UHGV virus genome: UHGV-0333071
DNA: 24,121 bases
Direction: 5' to 3' (one strand)
From: a virus
Part shown: one piece after another, positions 15,179-24,121 of the stretch
How positions within the stretch are numbered: position 1 is the stretch's first letter
Layout of the letters: every line of letters starts with the position of its first letter
The notes under the pieces: model-generated
Databases searched by the model: none
Seen by the model: only the letters and a program-made list of their open reading frames with translations
What the model was told of the DNA's origin: nothing
Made by a program: the position numbers and the translations under genes

Positions 15179-17467
15179 TTACACTGAGCCACTATATATA
15201 ATATTCAACGCCCTTGTGCAATATGCAATTAACTCCCCTGGGAATATAGGCTCATTTGCAGCATTAGCATTGGTATCATGATGAAATTTACCAGCATAGC
15301 TATTTATTTCATTTAACTCATTTGTAATTGACGAGGCATGGTGAAGAGGTGAACCAGGTTGTGACGCAACTATCGCCTGTACTATTTCACCAAACAACTT
15401 ACCTGATGGGATATGATTAGGGAATCGACGATGTAAATACCCCTCTAACAATGGACGAATTGCAGTAGCAACGTCTTTTTCATTATATGGTTCACCATTG
15501 ACATATCCACTTACTAATCGATGATTTTTATAATAAGCAGACTCGCATTCAATATCTAGATCAAGAGAAACAAGAGTACTAAACTGCCCATGCGTATGAA
15601 CAACTTTAATTAGAGACAAAAGATTCGGATCATTCAACTTCTTGATGAAGTCATCTCTTAACTTTTTAATAAAAAAAGCATCATGTGCTAAGATTATTAA
15701 CTGTTTGCAGTTATCACATATTTTTTTAAGTTCGTTTACTGTCTGTTGCTTTCTGTGTGTATCAAAACTACACATAGGGTCATCAATTAGTACAATTTTA
15801 TTAGTAAGATTTTGATCTTCAGATATGACAGCAATGAAAAATGCAAATGCAAGAGTGCGTTTGTCACCTTCGCTTAAACAGGTTTTGAACCCAGCATCTT
15901 CACCTTGTAATGTAATTCTATTTCCTCGAAGATTTAATGCATACTCGGTTCTAGGCTCTCCTGTGCCACGATAGTTATAGGTTACTTCTTCAATAGTAAA
16001 GGCTGCTCCAAACTTCTGAAGTAAAATATTAATCGATGATTCATATCGACCAAGAGTTGCCTGCATTATGGTATTAAGAGTGTTTTTTTTCGCTTCCTTT
16101 TCTGCTAAAGCCGCTGTTTCAACAGCTTTAGCAGCAGTATATTCATTAATCAAGTTAACTACAGCTGGAGAATATCGAGTCTTTATAGCATTGAGTCGAT
16201 TATTTTCTTCAGTCAATGTCTGAATATTAATATTTTCCAAGCTGGTTTTATAATCATCAATCTGGTTATTCAAAATGTCTAGTTGTTCATTAAACTCAGT
16301 AACACACTGAACCATTTTATCAATAATTGCCTGGCACTCACCTTCAAATTTTTGTTCTAACTTATCCAAAGGTGATGCAGTTTTTATTTTCACACAATCG
16401 GTTAATATTCCATCTAGTGAGGTTTTAAGCTCATCTAGCTTATTAATATCTAATGATGGTGTGTTTAGTGATAAGTATTCCCCCCAAGAAAGAATGTTTT
16501 CAGTAATGCTAATCTGCTCTTGGTTTTTTAATGGTATATTAAAGGATGACAATATGGCCGCTTTTTTGTTTTCTAATAAGCTTATCTCTTTAATGAAATT
16601 TCTATATTCTGTATTAAAGTATGTTTTATAAGCATCTATAAGACTAAGTCCTTCCACTGTTTGCGCGCAAAAAGGACAAGTATCTTCTTTTAAAAATTTC
16701 TGCCCATCACTTATCCATTTTTGAGCACCATCATCAGATAAATGCTGGAAATGTGCATCAACTACAGAACTTGCATTCTCATCAATTTTATCAACAGTTG
16801 TATACATTACATTAAAGAAATTCTGTATATCCACTGTGAATTCAGTCAGCTTTTTAAGTTTGTTTTTATTTTTAATAACACTAATTCTTTGGGACTTACC
16901 TTGTTCCACTAAGTTAGCAGCGATCAAATCATCAATATTATCAATACTTCTCAGGCGTATATATTGAGATAGGGTATAATGACCACGATAACCAGTTAAT
17001 CTTGCCTCTACATTTCTTTTTGCAGTAGTACAATTTGTGGCATGTTGACTAGCTGCATCAAACTCTATCTTTGCAGCAACAGCCGACTGACCTAACGCAA
17101 AACTTAGGAGGTTTTTTCTTTGCCCTGGTGTAATTTCACCTCCAGAATAAACATTCGTATCTATAAAATCCAAATCAAAAACATGAAAATCAGTAAACTT
17201 CCTATCCCATTGATTATTTTCAAACTTAGCTCTATTTCCTTGACTAAATTGCAGATCAATAAATTGATCTACACTAGAGTTAAATGTCTTTCTGCTCAAT
17301 AACACATTAGACGCTGAGTGTGTATAAGAACGCATTATTGATGCAAGAGTTGACTTCCCCCTTCCATTATCGCCATAAATTAATGATATTTTTTTGAATT
17401 GAATGGCTGCAGGACGGATGTCGTTAAAGAGACCAACACCAGTAATCTTATGAATTCTTTCTAACAT
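15179..17467 (-). CDS. Rad50/SMC-like ABC ATPase with CxxC zinc-hook coiled-coil and C-terminal nuclease-like domain (RloC-like anticodon-nuclease candidate); putative anti-phage defence protein
   Basis: 762-aa ORF in strongly AT-rich DNA. Walker A GDNGRGKST (aa 32-40), long coiled-coil insertion with CPFC at aa 264-267 (nt 16667-16678), ABC signature LSEGDKR (aa 531-537), Walker B IVLIDDP (aa 558-564), H-loop LAHD (aa 593-596), then about 150 aa containing R671-x3-E675 and HH709-710. AAGGA RBS 7 nt upstream. Confidence 0.6.
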   Translation of the reverse strand: MLERIHKITGVGLFNDIRPAAIQFKKISLIYGDNGRGKSTLASIMRSYTHSASNVLLSRKTFNSSVDQFIDLQFSQGNRAKFENNQWDRKFTDFHVFDLDFIDTNVYSGGEITPGQRKNLLSFALGQSAVAAKIEFDAASQHATNCTTAKRNVEARLTGYRGHYTLSQYIRLRSIDNIDDLIAANLVEQGKSQRISVIKNKNKLKKLTEFTVDIQNFFNVMYTTVDKIDENASSVVDAHFQHLSDDGAQKWISDGQKFLKEDTCPFCAQTVEGLSLIDAYKTYFNTEYRNFIKEISLLENKKAAILSSFNIPLKNQEQISITENILSWGEYLSLNTPSLDINKLDELKTSLDGILTDCVKIKTASPLDKLEQKFEGECQAIIDKMVQCVTEFNEQLDILNNQIDDYKTSLENINIQTLTEENNRLNAIKTRYSPAVVNLINEYTAAKAVETAALAEKEAKKNTLNTIMQATLGRYESSINILLQKFGAAFTIEEVTYNYRGTGEPRTEYALNLRGNRITLQGEDAGFKTCLSEGDKRTLAFAFFIAVISEDQNLTNKIVLIDDPMCSFDTHRKQQTVNELKKICDNCKQLIILAHDAFFIKKLRDDFIKKLNDPNLLSLIKVVHTHGQFSTLVSLDLDIECESAYYKNHRLVSGYVNGEPYNEKDVATAIRPLLEGYLHRRFPNHIPSGKLFGEIVQAIVASQPGSPLHHASSITNELNEINSYAGKFHHDTNANAANEPIFPGELIAYCTRALNIIYSGSV

Positions 17468-17635: not shown

Positions 17636-20227
17636 TTAATTTCTCAACATCTTCCAGTATTCTCCAATAGGGTCGAAACGAAGTTTTGACGAAGCTACTC
17701 CATGCTCATCACGCAGCCGCTCCCATAATTTATTCACCGTCCGTGACTCGTTGGGTAATTGACGCGTTATCAACTGGCCGCCAGCACTGGCCCGATAAAC
17801 TTTGCCGCTAATCTCCAGACGGCTCCCCATTAACAGCGAAACGGCCTGAATCTCTGAAATCTCAACCAAACACAACGCCGCATCAGCCAGCAGACTGGCA
17901 ACCGCAGGGGCAAGAACTGCCCGCTTGGCTTTTTCAGCCGCCGATCTGGCCTCGGTTTTTTCCACGGCAGAACGCCAGGCGGTATCTAATTCGCTTCCTA
18001 GCTCGTAAGGCGATCCGCTTTTCTGCCTTTTGAATGGTGTTTCACGTAGTCGCCGCATCAATTTGCGCCGCGTTGACTGGTCCATATTTTCAAAATCGAC
18101 GATTTCTTCTTCTGACTCTTCTGTCATACCCTCCACATCAGGCGAAAAATTGGTGATTTTTTCGGCTTCCGTAGAGTTATTGACAGAACTCCAAGCGTCG
18201 CCGGTTGGCGACGGCAAAAGATCAACCCCCAAACCGGGGCCGTTTTGGGCCTCGGTGTTAGCTTTGTATTTGGCGCGGATTTTCCACTTAACCAGACGAG
18301 TGCAAATACGGGAGGCATCACCCAGACGCGGCGACCAGACCCCGAAAACCTTTTCGGGGATCTCACAATAAGCATTCATTTCATCAGCTGGCTGATAGGC
18401 CAGACGGACGACATAGTTTTCACGCGGGATCAAAACACCACCCTGGCGGATGATGTAGGTAGCAAAGCACCCGACATCGGCAGCGGCGCAAACCGCATCC
18501 ATTGCAGGATCCACAAGCAACGGCGCACCGCGCTTGAAGGTATTGTCAATTTTCTGGCGGGTCGTGATCTGATTGCTCAGTTTGCGCAGCTCGCGGTAAA
18601 CCGATATGGGCGGCTGTCCGATGGGCTGAAACTGGCGGATGCGGTGGAGTGACGCCCAGGCCATTGCATATTTGGCTGTTTCATTCAGCGGCTTGCCGCT
18701 TTCGTCGTCCAGTTCACCGGCCAGCGCGTGACCGTCGATATTCTTCGAAATGTATTTGGCGATATACGCCGTTGCTGACCCTTTCCGTGGGTCCATTTTT
18801 TTTGACTTGAAACGAGCACCGGTATTGCGGCCCAGCTCGTCGCGGTCTTCCGCAATGAAGTAGGCGCGAAGGATCGCAACCGTGGCTTTAACCTGCTCTT
18901 GTGGCATAAATAGCAACGCGTGCCAGTGTGGCGTCCCATCGTGATGCGGTTCGGCGACGCGGAAGCCATAAGGGCGCAAATCTTCGCGTTTCAGTTTGGC
19001 GGTTGCCCGGTTCCATACACGGCATAAATAGCGCTGCGCCTGGGCGACGGTGGAATGATTCCATTTGGCGTTATGGTGGCCGGACGCAATATTGCTGTGA
19101 TATTTCGACGGGCAAGTAATGGTCAGGAAGATGCCAACATCGCCGCGACTTTGGGCGACAAGTTCAACCCCAGCCATTCGGGCCATAAGCTCATGGCGAC
19201 GAATAGCCGGGTTAGACGTGGATTTATTAATCATTTCCTCAAGCGACGAAACGTTGCCGTCTTCGTCTACCAGTTCATGACTTTTGAAAAAATCCCGGTT
19301 CTTACGGCGCTGTTCCTGCCACTCGATCAGGCTGGAAGCGCTAACGTAGACGTGCGCTTTTTTATTTACCGCGCCAACAGCACGCAGCTGGTTCTCGCGC
19401 CAGTCACAACGCAAGCGCCAGATTTTGCGCCCCCACCAGTCAGGTGAAGCCATACGCAAAATGGCCGTGCATATGCGCTCGCGTTCCCACGGCGCATACC
19501 ATGCAGGCGGCACAATACGAAGCGCCAGCATTTCGCGGCCCAGGTGGCAATAAAGCCAGTCCAGTTCTTCGACGTTCATGTCGGAAACATTCCGCCCCAG
19601 GGCTTCGCATTCCGTCCCAAGCATTTCAGCCATGCGGCTGGCGATCTCATTAGCGGCGCTTAGTGCCTCCCGCTTTGTGAAATCAGCCAGTCGTTGCCAG
19701 CGCCCGAACCAGTACGCGGCCAGTTCGCCGGTGAGATCAGGCGAAACACCTTGCCTTGTGCGCACAACATCAAGACGCAGCAATGATTTTTTCACGGTCC
19801 CCATAAGAAAATCATTGGTGTGTCTGGCTTCACGGTTGGCCCGTAACCATTCAATTTTTTTGCGCCAGACTTCACGAATGAAGAACGGCTCTGATAATAA
19901 ACGCGCTTCGACACCTTCCGACGTATTGGCCCAGGCTGCCGCCGTAGCTTTGGCGGCTTCCATTTCCTGCCGGATTATATTTTGATGGACGGCCAGTGGC
20001 AGGCCGCACGGTTCGTACCTGTCCAGCGCCTGGATAAGCGCGTTACGGTCGCGAACATCGTCGGGGTTGTAACCGGCGCGTTTGAAGATGTGATCGATGT
20101 GTTTTTTTACGGCAGGATGATGCGCCACCGCCCCGGCAAGCGGGGCGATTTTTTTCGGTTCGTAGGTGTACAGGCCAACAGCTGGGCGCGGCGCGTTCCA
20201 GGACCATGCAAAAGCGGCGTCAGACAT
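17636..20227 (-). CDS. A: Replication initiation endonuclease, P2 gpA family
   Basis: N-terminus ..AFAWSWNAPRPAVG.. resembles P2 gpA (..AYAWNAPREAVG..) as recalled. Preferred start is the ATG at 20227 (GAGG RBS); the ORF track uses GTG at 20248. Confidence 0.85.
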   Translation of the reverse strand: MSDAAFAWSWNAPRPAVGLYTYEPKKIAPLAGAVAHHPAVKKHIDHIFKRAGYNPDDVRDRNALIQALDRYEPCGLPLAVHQNIIRQEMEAAKATAAAWANTSEGVEARLLSEPFFIREVWRKKIEWLRANREARHTNDFLMGTVKKSLLRLDVVRTRQGVSPDLTGELAAYWFGRWQRLADFTKREALSAANEIASRMAEMLGTECEALGRNVSDMNVEELDWLYCHLGREMLALRIVPPAWYAPWERERICTAILRMASPDWWGRKIWRLRCDWRENQLRAVGAVNKKAHVYVSASSLIEWQEQRRKNRDFFKSHELVDEDGNVSSLEEMINKSTSNPAIRRHELMARMAGVELVAQSRGDVGIFLTITCPSKYHSNIASGHHNAKWNHSTVAQAQRYLCRVWNRATAKLKREDLRPYGFRVAEPHHDGTPHWHALLFMPQEQVKATVAILRAYFIAEDRDELGRNTGARFKSKKMDPRKGSATAYIAKYISKNIDGHALAGELDDESGKPLNETAKYAMAWASLHRIRQFQPIGQPPISVYRELRKLSNQITTRQKIDNTFKRGAPLLVDPAMDAVCAAADVGCFATYIIRQGGVLIPRENYVVRLAYQPADEMNAYCEIPEKVFGVWSPRLGDASRICTRLVKWKIRAKYKANTEAQNGPGLGVDLLPSPTGDAWSSVNNSTEAEKITNFSPDVEGMTEESEEEIVDFENMDQSTRRKLMRRLRETPFKRQKSGSPYELGSELDTAWRSAVEKTEARSAAEKAKRAVLAPAVASLLADAALCLVEISEIQAVSLLMGSRLEISGKVYRASAGGQLITRQLPNESRTVNKLWERLRDEHGVASSKLRFDPIGEYWKMLRN

Positions 20228-20241
20228 GGGATGCCTCGCTA

Positions 20242-21246
20242 TTACCACGTTTCCGGGTTATCGGACGGCTCGCAAATATCGCAGTTGCCTCGACAATCAA
20301 ACGACCATCCCTCCTCACATGCGGCGATACCTGGGCAACATTTCGCACAGTGACCACCTTCATAGCGCCCGCAGCCATCACAGACAGGCAGCACGCCGAT
20401 TACTTCACTGGCGGCCCCTCGGGTAATGGCGTTCGCGCTGACAGAACGGTTAACGCTGATTTCCTGGAAGTTGAAAGCGCGATAAATCTCGCGGGTAGCT
20501 GGGGTGTCGCTATTTGACAGGATCACCGGCGAACCAGTAAGGCGGTTAGTATCCAGCAGGGCGGCAGCTAACTGGCGATGCTCTTTAATGCCAAACGGGG
20601 CAGTGTGGTATTGGGTGAAATTAGCGGTGTCGCTTGCTGGCAGGTATGGCGGATCGCAGTAGATAACCGCGTCACTACCAATCATGATTTTTAACGTGCT
20701 CTGGAAATCGCAGCACACGAAAATAGCTTTCGTGTCGTTAGCTTTTTCAGAGAATAAACGGATCTGTTCTTCCGGGAAATAAGGCGGGGTTTTGTGTCGC
20801 CCAAAGGGAACGTTATATCCACCCTGTTGGTTGTAGCGTACTACGCCGTTATATCCGTGACGGTTCAGGTAAAGAAATTGTGCTGCACGAAGAATCTTGC
20901 CCGTGTCCGGTCCGTCCTCAAACACATTGCGCGATGACAGAAGGTCATGGGCGCGAGCGTTGAAATCGTCGCGGATCCACTTATAGCCGTCTTTATCGCC
21001 GTACACTTTAAACAGCGGGCGAGCAGCGTCTATCACCGCATCAGGCCAGCGGGTTATCTGGCGATACAGGTTAATTAAATCTGGGTTGATATCACTCAGG
21101 ATATAACGGCGATATTCAGTATTGAGGAAAACAGAAGCACCGCCGACAAACGGTTCCACCAGGCAATCGGCTTTTGGCAGAATCGGCAGCAAATCAGGCA
21201 TAACGCGGCCTTTACCACCGGGCCATTTAACGAGAGATCGAATCAT
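20242..21246 (-). CDS. dam: DNA adenine methyltransferase (Dam family, GATC-type) with Cys-rich C-terminal extension
   Basis: Near-colinear similarity to E. coli Dam as recalled (..KWPGGKG.., ..CLVEPFVGGASVFLNT.., ..FLYLNRHGYNGVVRYN.., ..VIYCDPPY..). Extra C-terminal tail of about 50 aa with ten cysteines. Confidence 0.85.
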   Translation of the reverse strand: MIRSLVKWPGGKGRVMPDLLPILPKADCLVEPFVGGASVFLNTEYRRYILSDINPDLINLYRQITRWPDAVIDAARPLFKVYGDKDGYKWIRDDFNARAHDLLSSRNVFEDGPDTGKILRAAQFLYLNRHGYNGVVRYNQQGGYNVPFGRHKTPPYFPEEQIRLFSEKANDTKAIFVCCDFQSTLKIMIGSDAVIYCDPPYLPASDTANFTQYHTAPFGIKEHRQLAAALLDTNRLTGSPVILSNSDTPATREIYRAFNFQEISVNRSVSANAITRGAASEVIGVLPVCDGCGRYEGGHCAKCCPGIAACEEGWSFDCRGNCDICEPSDNPETW

Positions 21247-21316: not shown

Positions 21317-21706
21317 TTAATTGACTGCGTTATCTAGCGCGGGTGGTTTGTCGCGTATCGCCTGAATTTCGGCGCGTGGTGCGGCGTAGTCCTCAAATTC
21401 CCACGGCATTGATGCTGCAAATTCGGAAAGGCGCTTAATGCCCATCAAAAGGCACGTTTGCTCCTTTTCGGTTAGATTTTCGTAAGTGCAACCCAACTGT
21501 TTGGCGGTCAGTTTCGGCATTCCGGCTATGTATCTGGACGCATCGTTTGCCAGGATGAAAATCACCTTTTTATAGGCATCATCCAGGCGGTTAAACCGGG
21601 TTGCAGTGTCGTTCACGCGTGAGGCGTTCAAACTTGCTTGCAGTCGCGCCCGTTGCTCTAAGAACTGGCGGCGGCCAGGCTGTTGTCCTGTCTTATCCAT
21701 CAACAT
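21317..21706 (-). CDS. Hypothetical early-operon protein
   Basis: Minus-strand ORF between the small upstream ORF and dam. Preferred start is the ATG at 21706 (GGAGG RBS 5 nt upstream); the track ORF begins at GTG 21712. Confidence 0.5.
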   Translation of the reverse strand: MLMDKTGQQPGRRQFLEQRARLQASLNASRVNDTATRFNRLDDAYKKVIFILANDASRYIAGMPKLTAKQLGCTYENLTEKEQTCLLMGIKRLSEFAASMPWEFEDYAAPRAEIQAIRDKPPALDNAVN

Positions 21707-21721
21707 AACCACCTCCCCGAA

Positions 21722-21943
21722 CTACGCAAAGATGCCCATTAAGCGGGAAAACCAGCGGCGCTTATTACGCGGGCGCGACATAAACGGTACACGGCAGTTT
21801 TTAACAAATTGAACATCTGCCGCTTTAGGCTGGAAGAACCGCCCGTCCGGGGTTTCAATCCAGCCGCGTTGATGCTGACGGTGGGTGATCTGCTGGCCGT
21901 GGGTGAGCAGGCTGGCAAGTGAAGGGCATTGTGTTAAGTCCAT
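21722..21943 (-). CDS. Hypothetical small basic early-operon protein (73 aa)
   Basis: Preferred start is the ATG at 21943 (GGAG RBS 6 nt upstream; MDLTQCPSLASLL...); the longer track ORF from 22015 would run into the opposite-strand gene. Confidence 0.45.
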   Translation of the reverse strand: MDLTQCPSLASLLTHGQQITHRQHQRGWIETPDGRFFQPKAADVQFVKNCRVPFMSRPRNKRRWFSRLMGIFA

Positions 21944-22081
21944 GTTGATCTCCGTCATATTCAAAAAGTGCCGGGATACAACCCCACGCCCGGCGCGTGT
22001 TTCCTGTGATAACATCGCTATGCCTGTGAAACTTTGAGAGGTGAATCAGGCATAACAATCACCAACACAGAAGGAGTTGTA

Positions 22082-22543
22082 ATGAAATTCAATGTTTTTT
22101 TAAAAGTAAACCATGGCGCACACTGGGTTCTCTCCTCCGGCTCACCTATTTTTGAAAGCACTTTATTTGAAACACGGCCAGAGGCTATTAATGACCTTGA
22201 AAAATTTGTAACCGGCATGGAATCACCAACATTTATTGACAATGACAATAGCGATAGCCCCTCCCCAGCAACAGTTATTTTCAAACAGATTGATTCCCGC
22301 TGGCATTGGACATTATTTTTTTCATTCAATGGAGTACGATCTAAAATCGCCGAAAGCTCAGAAAAAGGCTTTGACTCATTAGAACTTGCCAAACAAAAAG
22401 CCAAGATTTTCTGTAATTCCATTGTCGACGCTCCAATTCTTGACCAGTTTGATATTGCCATTCCTGGCCTAGGCTTCACAAAATCCTTTGAACATGCACA
22501 TAACATCGGCGACATTCACCCATCTAGTAAATGGGTAAAGTAA
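22082..22543 (+). CDS. YegP/DUF1508-like tandem-domain protein (unknown function)
   Basis: Only plus-strand gene in the early region; AAGGAG RBS 6 nt before the ATG at 22082; AT-rich. Two roughly 50-aa segments (KFNVFLKVNHGAHWVLSSGSPIFESTLFETRPEAINDLEKF and WHWTLFFSFNGVRSKIAESSEKGFDSLELAKQKAKIF) follow the YegP repeat pattern as recalled. Confidence 0.45.
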   Translation: MKFNVFLKVNHGAHWVLSSGSPIFESTLFETRPEAINDLEKFVTGMESPTFIDNDNSDSPSPATVIFKQIDSRWHWTLFFSFNGVRSKIAESSEKGFDSLELAKQKAKIFCNSIVDAPILDQFDIAIPGLGFTKSFEHAHNIGDIHPSSKWVK

Positions 22544-22547
22544 GCAG

Positions 22548-22895
22548 TCATTGTGGCGTTACAATTTTTCTTGTGCGGGGTGGAACATCTCGCACGGTTT
22601 CATCATCAACAATCAATTCATAAATTTGAATGCTGTTATCAGATTTTGATATTTCATCAAATACCTGAAAAAGAAAACTCATGAATTGCTCATAAGTAAC
22701 AGTAGGATCAATAAACCCTCCCGCAACACATAACAAAGGTGTTAGTCCTGAGTTATTCACTACTGAGATACTATTCAACTGATCAAGACGAAAAAAATAA
22801 TTACCGGCCGGTGTTCTTTTATCATTTATATGAATAAACACATTTGATAATGCTATATGACTATCTGAGAGTTTAAAGATTTTTGCCGTGTCCAT
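22548..22895 (-). CDS. Hypothetical protein (115 aa), AT-rich cargo gene downstream of cox
   Basis: A long ORF in AT-rich DNA is unlikely by chance. Sits 22 nt downstream of the cox stop; tail-to-tail with the YegP-like gene with a 4-nt gap. RBS is weak. Confidence 0.45.
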   Translation of the reverse strand: MDTAKIFKLSDSHIALSNVFIHINDKRTPAGNYFFRLDQLNSISVVNNSGLTPLLCVAGGFIDPTVTYEQFMSFLFQVFDEISKSDNSIQIYELIVDDETVRDVPPRTRKIVTPQ

Positions 22896-22917
22896 TTTAT
22901 TCAGCCCTGTAAGTTGC

Positions 22918-23193
22918 TTATGATGGATTGCCCAGACCCAACCACATTAACCACCCTTCCCTAATTTCCTTCGGGCGGCTCTCATACGCCATTTTCATTC
23001 CGTTGTTCCAGGCTGGGAGGTAGACCCAGTACTCACCTGCCCGCCCGGAAGTTGATTGCGGATCGGTCATCTCAACTACGGGTAGCTTTCCTTTTTCAAT
23101 CATTCCCCTTACTGCTGCCGGTGTTTTGCCGATCAGTTTTGCAAACTCCTGGTACGGGACAGCATCACTAATACTGACAACTTGTTTGCTCAT
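22918..23193 (-). CDS. cox: Cox (excisionase / repressor of the lysogenic promoter)
   Basis: 91 aa, near-identical along its length to P2 Cox as recalled (..AVPYQEFAKLIGK..GKLPVVEMTDPQS..GRAGEYWVYLPAWNNG..ESRPKEIREGWLMWLGLG..). Confidence 0.9.
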   Translation of the reverse strand: MSKQVVSISDAVPYQEFAKLIGKTPAAVRGMIEKGKLPVVEMTDPQSTSGRAGEYWVYLPAWNNGMKMAYESRPKEIREGWLMWLGLGNPS

Positions 23194-23316
23194 CTGCTAA
23201 CCTCGTATCTAGATCTAACCAATGGGTTTCAAAGTTCTTTAATGGGCTTTGATGCACATTGACAACATCTAAAACCACATTAGAGAGTTTCGATAATATT
23301 AGAGGATCTTGATAAC
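23194..23316. promoter_or_regulatory. C/cox switch region: candidate C-operator direct repeats and convergent promoters
   Basis: Direct repeats AATGGGTTTCAAAG (23221-23234) and AATGGGCTTTGATG (23241-23254), 20 bp apart, bracket a candidate early-promoter -10 on the minus strand (about 23236-23241). A perfect TTGACA sits on the plus strand at 23259-23264, and GATAAT at 23292-23297. Confidence 0.45.
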
Positions 23317-23616
23317 ATGTCAACGCCCATAAGCGAAAAACTAGCGTTAGTTCGTGAGTCAGAGCGACTAAACCGGAAGCAATTCGCTGAAATAACAGGA
23401 GTTCCTTACAGTTCTCTAACTTATTATGAGAGCGGAAGAACTACGCCACCCACTGACGTAACGATGAAAATTCTCCAGCACCCCAGATTTAGCAAATACA
23501 CGTTGTGGTTTATGACAGATCAGGTTGCTCCCGAAGCCGGTCAGATAGCACCGGCCCTCGCACACTTTGGGCAAGATGTAACAACATCGCAGCACTCAGA
23601 CCAAAAGATTGGTTAA
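23317..23616 (+). CDS. C: Immunity repressor C
   Basis: 99 aa, closely matching P2 C as recalled (MS..ISEK..L.R.SE.L.R.Q.A..TGVPY..L.YYESGR.TPPTDV.M.ILQ.P.F.KYTLWFMT.Q.APE.GQIAPALAHFGQ..). Confidence 0.9.
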   Translation: MSTPISEKLALVRESERLNRKQFAEITGVPYSSLTYYESGRTTPPTDVTMKILQHPRFSKYTLWFMTDQVAPEAGQIAPALAHFGQDVTTSQHSDQKIG

Positions 23617-23761: not shown

Positions 23762-24121
23762 ATGACAATTAAGAAACTCGATGATGGTCGATATGAAGTG
23801 GACGTCAGACCTGCAGGGCGCAACGGAAAGCGCATCCGCAGGAAGTTCGATAAGAAAAGTGAAGCTATCGCTTTTGAAAAACATACGCAGTACAACCATC
23901 ACAACAAAGATTGGTTGGCTAAACCGACAGATAAGCGGCATCTGTCTGAATTAACAAAAGTCTGGTGGGATCTGAAAGGTAAGCATGAAGAACACGGAAA
24001 ATCCAATTTGGGTAAGATTGAAATCTTTACCCGGATCACTGATGACCCTTGCGCGTTCCAGATAACCAAAGCGCTTATTAGCCAGTACAGCATGACTCGC
24101 AGAGGGCAAGGCATAAAACCG
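23762..24121 (+). CDS. int: Integrase (tyrosine recombinase), N-terminal 120 aa; 3' end beyond the window
   Basis: Translation from ATG 23762 gives MTIKKLDDGRYEVDVRPAGRNGKRIRRKFDKKSEAIAFEKHTQYNHHNKDWLAKPTDKR..., matching the P2 Int N-terminus as recalled. Absent from the ORF track because it has no stop in the window. Confidence 0.9.
   Translation, partial: MTIKKLDDGRYEVDVRPAGRNGKRIRRKFDKKSEAIAFEKHTQYNHHNKDWLAKPTDKRHLSELTKVWWDLKGKHEEHGKSNLGKIEIFTRITDDPCAFQITKALISQYSMTRRGQGIKP

Follow-up and report, generated by a model that had tools for sequence, protein, structure and literature searches.

In the 24,121-nt stretch of virus genome UHGV-0333071 analysed here (the window, in which position 1 is the first letter), the final part is the left arm of a P2-like prophage, whose early operon harbours a two-gene cassette that is real, conserved and dispensable. 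The cassette comprises orf153 (plus strand, 22082-22543; 153 aa), the sole plus-strand gene within the run from cox to gpA, and orf115 (minus strand, 22548-22895; 115 aa), the second gene of the early operon driven by the Pe-like promoter. We give an even chance to the proposal that orf153 is a moron-type unit lying antisense in the Pe operon, active in lysogens and silenced once the prophage is induced, and that orf115 is its early counterpart. As read from the sequence, the architecture and the regulation model are fairly likely; a role of the unit in exclusion or defence by the lysogen, with orf115 as early partner, is a guess.

The two genes lie tail-to-tail with a gap of 4 nt (22544-22547). 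The open frame of orf153 spans 22034-22543 from a TTG codon, and ATG 22082, preceded at 5 nt by the Shine-Dalgarno (SD) sequence GAAGGAG (22070-22076), is its likely start. The G+C content is 0.32-0.44 over 22000-22900 vs 0.49-0.60 in the flanks. The initial annotation had described a convergent AT-rich module made of a 115-aa minus-strand and a 153-aa plus-strand gene, the latter with a strong ribosome-binding site, and this description stands.

Both predicted proteins match PHROG families over their full length (9021 for orf153 and 10410 for orf115, both at ~1e-62; function unknown). Searches of 5.8 billion proteins returned 15 clusters for orf153 and 22 for orf115, often on the same contigs, and an exhaustive search of 1.84 billion representatives with the orf153 profile yielded just 24 relatives, all 'hypothetical'. 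The relatives of orf153 come from Citrobacter, Kluyvera, Salmonella, Escherichia, Yersinia, Proteus, Enterobacter, Xenorhabdus, Hafnia and Erwinia, and identity between homologues reaches as low as 24%. Pairwise Nei-Gojobori analyses gave dN/dS values of 0.12-0.37 for orf153 and 0.06-0.31 for orf115, with saturated synonymous sites. By these sequence measures both are real genes under purifying selection, including the 115-aa ORF (open reading frame) whose conservation and coding signal had been flagged as a possible weak point of the initial annotation. The AT-rich, foreign composition of the region and the existence of copies broken by insertion sequence (IS) elements or frameshifts, such as that of locus L019, would fit decaying foreign DNA with chance or relic ORFs. 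However, dN/dS values of 0.06-0.37 over saturated dS, full-length homologues spread over eight genera or more, confidently predicted folds and the conservation of the cis elements make this explanation extremely improbable, and the selection analysis effectively refutes it.

The orf153 product is soluble and mildly acidic. Its AlphaFold model (pLDDT 85, pTM 0.80) is composed of two beta-beta-beta-alpha(-beta) units. The beta-beta-beta-alpha unit, present as a single homodimer or as a tandem pseudo-dimer, is the hallmark of the DUF1508/YegP fold, and the predicted fold of orf153 is tandem UPF0339/DUF1508 (YegP)-like. The YegP-like character attributed to the 153-aa protein in the initial annotation is thus borne out by the predicted model and not by the sequence. 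A Pfam scan gave no match to orf153 even at E<=1, the PF07411 gathering score (22 bits) not being reached; among 10 distant orf153 relatives scanned, a single one (P0058) produced a sub-threshold PF07411 match (17.1 bits, E 0.005). Neither of the profile searches (1.84e9 and 5.8e9 proteins) recovered a DUF1508-annotated protein, and an hmmsearch of PDB sequences with the family profile returned nothing at E<=10. The orf153 family therefore differs from the YegP/UPF0339/DUF1508 proteins (PF07411; PDB 2K49, 2K8E, 6Q2Z, 3BID and 2K7I) in having no significant sequence similarity to them. It is also distinguished by a conserved C-terminal extension of ~35 residues that YegP lacks and by its confinement to P2/186-like prophage early regions. 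The tail motif AP-I/V-x-D...F-S...I-x-D-x-H-P-S is family-specific and contains most of the invariant residues; W15, D144 and P147 are invariant in the family and H146 nearly so.

Tandem DUF1508 domains form a pseudo-dimer (bioRxiv 10.1101/2024.11.21.623966). They have been likened to the sPC4/Whirly proteins that bind single-stranded DNA or RNA, and were proposed to act as the sensor in Menshen NsnA (PMC12065111). YegP homologues are also found downstream of the DNA-damage regulators capK/capS (PMC13373217), and the papers searched give no function for YegP. As a side observation, two large proteins, P0055 (986 aa) and P0057 (2583 aa), match positions ~89-129 of the orf153 profile 4 and 8 times, respectively. 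P0055 also harbours cadherin-like, BNR and Reelin-type repeats, and these matches probably reflect repeats or low complexity rather than homology.

The orf115 product is acidic, with a predicted beta-rich core, one capping helix and a C-terminal tail modelled at low confidence (pLDDT 52-63). Beyond its own family, no significant relative was found by structure or sequence, a search of PDB sequences included. The Pfam scan of orf115 gave no hit and so no CII/CP76 (PF06892) or helix-turn-helix (HTH) signature, the predicted fold being beta-rich rather than HTH, and its profile met Hafnia CII at E 1.9 in hmmsearch.

Alignment of the upstream regions of diverged lineages revealed a succession of conserved elements before orf153. 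The first is a 30-bp GC-rich motif (21970-21999, plus strand) directly upstream of the putative promoter and 26 nt from the start codon of fil on the other strand. It is composed of two interleaved inverted repeats with arms GCCGGG...CCCGGC and CACG...CGTG, in the order a-b-a'-b'. The motif is unique in the window, where none is expected by chance, and its pairing is kept with compensatory changes in distant lineages. It is followed by an extended -10-like promoter, TGTGATAACAT (22005-22015, plus strand), with TG at 22007-22008, the hexamer TAACAT at 22010-22015 and no -35 element. The pattern TGTGnTAnnnT is invariant, alignment positions T42, G43, T45, A46 and T50 being fixed across 12 diverged upstream regions. 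Next comes a predicted stem-loop in the leader of the orf153 mRNA, TATGCCTG-N20-CAGGCATA (22019-22054, plus strand; -14.9 kcal/mol), in which six of the eight pairs are compensatory, with changes on both sides across lineages. Within the SD sequence, AGGAG is kept in the same alignment. Over the whole upstream structure, 87% of the cells are paired vs 25-48% with slid partners, none of 500 shuffles matches it, and 9 of the 18 pairs of the motif and leader structure have changed on both sides. No Rfam family was detected in this region or in the whole window.

Neither a LexA box nor a full operator of the C repressor was retained upstream of orf153 on inspection of the sequence, the only element shared with the Pe/C region being the 9-mer TGATAACAT. 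This 9-mer, located at the C start codon and the Pe -35, is found again as the orf153 putative extended -10 (22007-22015); the recurrence could be due to chance, since ~0.2 occurrences are expected. Direct repeats TTAGAG-N6-7-GATAA around the Pe -10 (23280-23318) are candidate C operators.

At the other end of the unit, the hairpin GTGCGGGGTGGAACATCTCGCAC (22573-22595) followed by the tail GGTTTCATCATC has the features of an intrinsic terminator on the plus strand. This element (22573-22607) begins 30 nt beyond the orf153 stop codon and is located within codons 97-108 of orf115. Its predicted folding energy is -17.9 kcal/mol on the plus strand (z -2.2) vs -9.4 kcal/mol on the minus strand (z -0.2), the weaker minus-strand fold being due to G-U pairs. 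In most of 13 lineages a hairpin, mostly of -10 to -15 kcal/mol, is found 9-47 nt past the stop codon with a T-rich tail. It is also present in lineages in which the partner gene is unrelated, and it is weaker in Proteus L027. The synonymous sites of the orf115 stem codons are frozen, with V101 encoded by GTG and R107 by CGC in all eight alleles and R102 by CGA or CGG only. The hairpin thus resembles an intrinsic terminator that would act in one direction only and end the orf153 transcript, coded in the 3' end of orf115. The initial annotation had stated that the 3' ends of the two genes leave no room for terminators; this has to be revised, since the hairpin, which is conserved, folds asymmetrically on the two strands and is followed by T-rich sequence, sits inside the orf115 coding sequence and the 3' ends therefore do leave room. 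Judging from the sequence, a gene at this site could be insulated by a terminator that forms part of the coding sequence of the gene facing it.

The early genes surrounding the cassette are all on the minus strand. The Pe-like promoter (TTGACA-16-TAATAT, 23296-23323, minus strand), identified by a consensus promoter scan, faces the gene of a 99-aa HTH repressor of the C type (23317-23616, plus strand), beyond which a tyrosine integrase gene starts at 23763 on the plus strand. The first gene of the early operon is cox (22918-23193; PF10743 Phage_Cox, E 5e-43), and orf115 follows it, with no visible promoter of its own. Immediately after the cassette comes fil (21722-21943), of the 186 Fil family (PF10893, E 4e-12; PHROG 816). 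The probable start of fil is ATG 21943, preceded by the SD sequence GGAGA, and PGAP calls a 73-aa form in E. coli. Downstream are a 131-aa ORF, a D12 adenine methylase gene (20242-21246) and gpA (17636-20248). The consensus scan of 21600-23400 detected no minus-strand promoter-like site except Pe. Early transcription therefore probably crosses orf153 in antisense on its way to fil, dam and A, as the initial annotation had proposed for transcription toward dam and A, because there is no other minus-strand promoter-like site and because cox and fil are contiguous in Salmonella phage SI7.

Taken as a moron-type unit, orf153 would thus consist of the motif, an extended -10 promoter lacking a -35 element, a structured leader, a strong SD sequence, the coding sequence and a terminator embedded in the convergent gene. 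In the lysogen, C would repress Pe, leaving only orf153 transcribed, and the terminator would hold this transcript out of cox and the switch region. Upon induction or infection, Pe transcription would produce orf115 and run antisense through orf153 to fil, dam and A, such that orf153 should be switched off both by polymerase collision and by pairing of sense and antisense RNAs. The orf153 protein might act in the lysogen, for example in exclusion or defence; its ligand may be single-stranded nucleic acid or a protein, in line with the proposal made for tandem DUF1508 domains, and orf115 might be its early-phase partner or neutralizer.

Comparisons with related prophages indicate that the cassette is accessory and not a set of core early genes, in line with the initial annotation. 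In SI7, fil has 96.6% nucleotide identity with that of the window, yet cox abuts fil and the cassette is absent; nucleotide homology to SI7 stops at 21932. Relative to sister prophages of E. coli and Citrobacter, identity is 90-100% up to 22095 and from ~22878, and falls to 42-80% precisely over the two coding regions, with sharp bounds (22096-22877). The dS of the orf153/orf115 pair is 0.5-1.5, whereas the fil, cox and C genes of these phages, compared two by two in the same way, give 0.04-0.09. The deep divergence of the pair in backbones of low dS points to old alleles having been recombined into nearly identical backbones. C and cox can be 100% identical while orf153 and orf115 are only 64% and 77% identical, and, on these sequences, the alleles of the pair vary independently of immunity type.

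Other cassettes can also occupy the slot. In E. coli 2013C-3033 (L038, 4001-4702), it is occupied by a convergent pair of unrelated genes built on the same plan, with a 64-aa gene on the plus strand and a 131-aa gene on the minus strand, in a backbone that is that of another, orf153-bearing prophage. In IMG/VR contig 3300034521_000114 (L075, 1-901), a 91-aa cargo replaces orf153, and the orf115 homologue is a chimera (P0019, 183 aa) that from about residue 108 continues as the C-terminus of another partner family; this C-terminus resembles a 156-aa partner found in L097. From these replacements, the swapped unit appears to comprise the promoter, the cargo and the terminator, and with them the 3' portion of the gene on the other strand. 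Among complete E. coli genomes, the 19 sister copies all belong to one identical lineage, and no prophage with the same cox and fil and without the cassette was found among them; the cases of absence and replacement were therefore taken from SI7 and L038.

Morons are reportedly autonomous promoter-gene-terminator units located between backbone genes, a concept attributed to Hendrix and Juhala. The sieB gene of lambda and P22, inside the pL operon, is an example. The cassette resembles them in its absence from close relatives, its deviant base composition and its lysogen-compatible orientation, and would also do so in having its own promoter and terminator, for which the conserved extended -10 and the strand-asymmetric hairpin are candidates. 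It differs from them in that its putative terminator lies inside a convergent early gene, in that it has a co-varying partner in the early operon, and in that its 5' end is a 30-bp motif common to dozens of unrelated cargos.

The convergent geometry is widely conserved. Every recovered context of the orf153 family is an early region of a P2- or 186-like prophage, with the gene oriented against the early operon. Even where orf153 is just 25-35% identical, as in lineages of Proteus, E. coli and Salmonella, its partner remains homologous to orf115 (hhalign 95.7%; hmmsearch E 2e-45, 1e-16 and 1e-12), and convergence is kept with a 4-nt gap or a 4-nt overlap. In a Hafnia 186-like prophage (L034, 5001-6018), a 164-aa homologue of orf153 converges on a CII gene of the 186 type (PF06892), the 3' ends of the two being separated by 4 nt, and in Erwinia the convergent partner is an unrelated 91-aa gene. 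By these comparisons, the pairing of orf153 with orf115 is frequent, not obligatory. The regions upstream of these two homologues show another feature. An unannotated divergent ORF seems to begin a few nt from the ATG of the orf153 homologue in L034. Erwinia L036 is similar, the divergent ORF being a called 89-aa gene. This upstream architecture is unlike that of the cox-type lineages.

The joint inheritance of two small genes whose transcripts overlap at their 3' ends, a pairing kept in four deep lineages and different convergent pairs at the same slot might also denote a toxin-antitoxin or addiction pair. One protein would then inhibit growth and be counteracted by the other protein or by the antisense RNA. 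Such a pair would be controlled by convergent overlapping transcripts, in the manner of the type I system txpA/RatA, and would stabilize the prophage or cause abortive infection. We consider this very unlikely, as neither Pfam nor PADLOC detected a toxin-antitoxin family domain in orf153 or orf115, both proteins are soluble and acidic with neither a membrane segment nor a nuclease motif, and orf153 homologues exist without orf115. Furthermore, in seven E. coli genomes an IS disrupts orf115 while orf153 remains intact, which is at odds with an indispensable antidote role of orf115 against a toxin expressed in the lysogen. Of the 19 complete E. coli genomes with the sister prophage, 8 have an IS within the locus (hits H24-H31), seven times an IS3-family element and once IS1A, whose position is unmapped. 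As mapped in L002 (6614-7827), where orf153 is intact, the IS3-family element is inside orf115, and it should be polar on fil, dam and A in loci of this type.

Alternatively, orf153 could be an ordinary gene of the lytic phase, in host takeover or anti-defence for example, whose inverted orientation is fortuitous; its promoter would fire during infection and not in the lysogen, and the convergence would have no regulatory meaning. This too is quite improbable. A gene required for lytic growth would be badly placed in antisense within the most strongly transcribed early unit, and a putative dedicated promoter and terminator together with a geometry kept at ~25-35% identity indicate a selected arrangement. 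In addition, the family was found only in prophages. Searches with orf153 and orf115 by tblastn gave no match in 50,697 GenBank phage genomes and none in 72,556 plasmids; a scan of GTDB representative genomes with the orf153 profile gave none either.

Several observations weigh against orf153 being a moron-type unit with an early partner. The strict consensus promoter scan missed the extended -10 of orf153, and promoter activity of this element is inferred at the level of consensus. The T-tract of the terminator in the window is interrupted, with four T in eight positions. No function is attached to any member of the orf153 family in the PHROG matches or homologue annotations, and PADLOC-DB v2 returned 0 families at E<=1 for orf153 and orf115. 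Lastly, the occurrence of orf153 without orf115 in Hafnia and Erwinia, and of orf115 with another cargo in L075, makes an obligate two-protein system doubtful, and the co-occurrence of the two genes could be explained by physical linkage alone.

We searched for the 30-bp motif beyond this prophage by an exact-pattern scan of IMG/VR with GCCGGG-N6-9-CCACGCCCGGCRCGTG. The motif was found in at least 120 IMG/VR contigs (loci L039-L158) and in many Enterobacterales GTDB representatives (L160, L161, L171, L173, L175, L182, L185, L199, L200, L202, L204, L208, L209, L212 and L213); matches in high-GC actinomycetes are probably due to chance. It is absent from the deposited phage genomes searched and from Rfam, and a literature search with its sequence found no paper; the motif was thus not found described in the sources searched. 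Among the matches listed, a plus-strand ORF preceded by an SD sequence starts 37-40 or 68-85 nt downstream of the motif in 107 of 120 loci. The ORFs linked to the motif represent at least 38 unrelated clusters of 37-195 aa, orf153 accounting for 6 of the 120 loci among the matches listed. All nine cargo families that were scanned are 'unknown' in PHROG or unmatched. Between the motif and the SD sequence, TGnTAnnnT is present in 67 of the 118 motif loci listed vs 4% of random windows, at fixed offsets from the motif and often using its last TG. On the minus-strand side, 41 different neighbours were counted among the matches listed, with start codons 23-35 nt off or plain terminators. These neighbours include Fil, Cox and, in prophages of the cI/cro type, an N-like arginine-rich protein; the hosts of the motif thus comprise lambdoid (cI/cro, N-like) as well as P2-like prophages. 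Many of the linked cargos are antisense in early operons beside N, cox or fil, and some have putative terminators within a convergent early gene.

Two assignments for the motif were discarded. A minus-strand terminator before fil is not supported, as other lineages have no consistent T-tract and the minus-strand fold has a z of ~0. A cassette-specific operator does not fit an element that precedes at least 38 unrelated cargos. An H-type pseudoknot on the early transcript, which would fit the a-b-a'-b' order with a short L1 and a long L3, was also considered and proved indistinguishable from a DNA dyad and from alternative hairpins. The motif might overlap the -35 region as a binding site, adopt an RNA structure, or supply a short stretch of homology at which cassettes are exchanged. 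On a bolder view, the motif and the extended -10 would form the portable 'launch pad' of an undescribed class of Enterobacterales prophage cassettes with at least 38 cargo families. As a shared regulatory element, a recombination element or both, the motif would then serve expression in the lysogen, silencing on induction and shuffling between phages, and orf115 would neutralize orf153 as a YegP-fold exclusion factor of the lysogen. We regard this full scenario as rather unlikely. In any case, the motif provides a simple sequence handle to retrieve dozens of unstudied small prophage genes, which are good candidates for lysogen-expressed exclusion, defence or host modulation.

The cassette shares several features with the CII/pE system of phage 186, namely its map position after an excisionase/cox-type gene and a leftward promoter without a -35 element but with a dyad, downstream of the early promoter; in Hafnia, moreover, the convergent partner of the orf153 homologue is CII itself. 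These likenesses raise the alternative of an accessory lysis-lysogeny regulator, a module for establishing or maintaining lysogeny in which orf115, produced early, would activate the orf153 promoter through the motif, and leftward transcription, the orf153 protein or both would damp lytic expression from Pe and tip the balance towards lysogeny. This explanation seems quite unlikely to us. Unlike the 186 system, the cassette is dispensable and replaceable (SI7, L038 and L075), its orf115 has no CII or HTH signature, and its leftward transcript seems to end before cox, the conserved terminator arguing against read-through into cox and C. The alleles are independent of immunity type, the similarity of orf115 to LytTR is below significance, and a motif found before 38 unrelated cargos, also in lambdoid prophages, cannot be the operator of a cassette-specific activator.

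With respect to location, the classical defence hotspot of P2-like phages is the old/tin locus between gpA and gpQ (Rousset 2022, PMC9122126), and the int-primase interval is a minor one, with 8% of P2 defence systems (PMC13586616). The cassette (21970-22895) is within the minor interval between int (from 23763) and gpA (17636-20248), not in the gpA-gpQ locus. It is similar to these hotspots as a variable locus with alternative cassettes and deep allelic diversity, and differs from them in that its cargo matches no known defence model and is antisense within the early operon rather than at the end of an operon. The post-cox position within the early operon would thus represent a third variable slot of P2-like prophages, built in a different way, alongside the gpA-gpQ hotspot. 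Deep, recombining alleles, replacement by other convergent pairs and the int-primase location together suggest a conflict-related function of the specificity type. The YegP/DUF1508 fold, as predicted for orf153, would accordingly gain a phage-borne, rapidly swapped relative whose context points to conflict functions.

In BstA/aba and in sieB/esc of P22, an exclusion factor expressed in the lysogen is neutralized by the prophage when it turns lytic. The likeness of the cassette to these systems would be one of mode of working only, by analogy and with no homology.

Two other features of the window were noted. The D12 methylase (20242-21246, minus strand) has 334 residues and ends with a Cys-rich C-terminal tail, CDGCGRYEGGHCAKCCPG...CRGNCDIC. 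This tail overlaps the start of gpA and is missing from an E. coli homologue of ~296 aa, which aligns to residues 1-293 only. Farther downstream, between gpA and ogr/portal, which corresponds to the classical gpA-gpQ defence hotspot of P2, a minus-strand gene (15179-17467) codes for a 762-aa AAA_13 ATPase (PF13166, E 2e-38) that matches the PADLOC candidate system PDC-S06 (E 3e-76). It is probably the first cargo module implied by the initial annotation, which had called the orf153/orf115 cassette the second.

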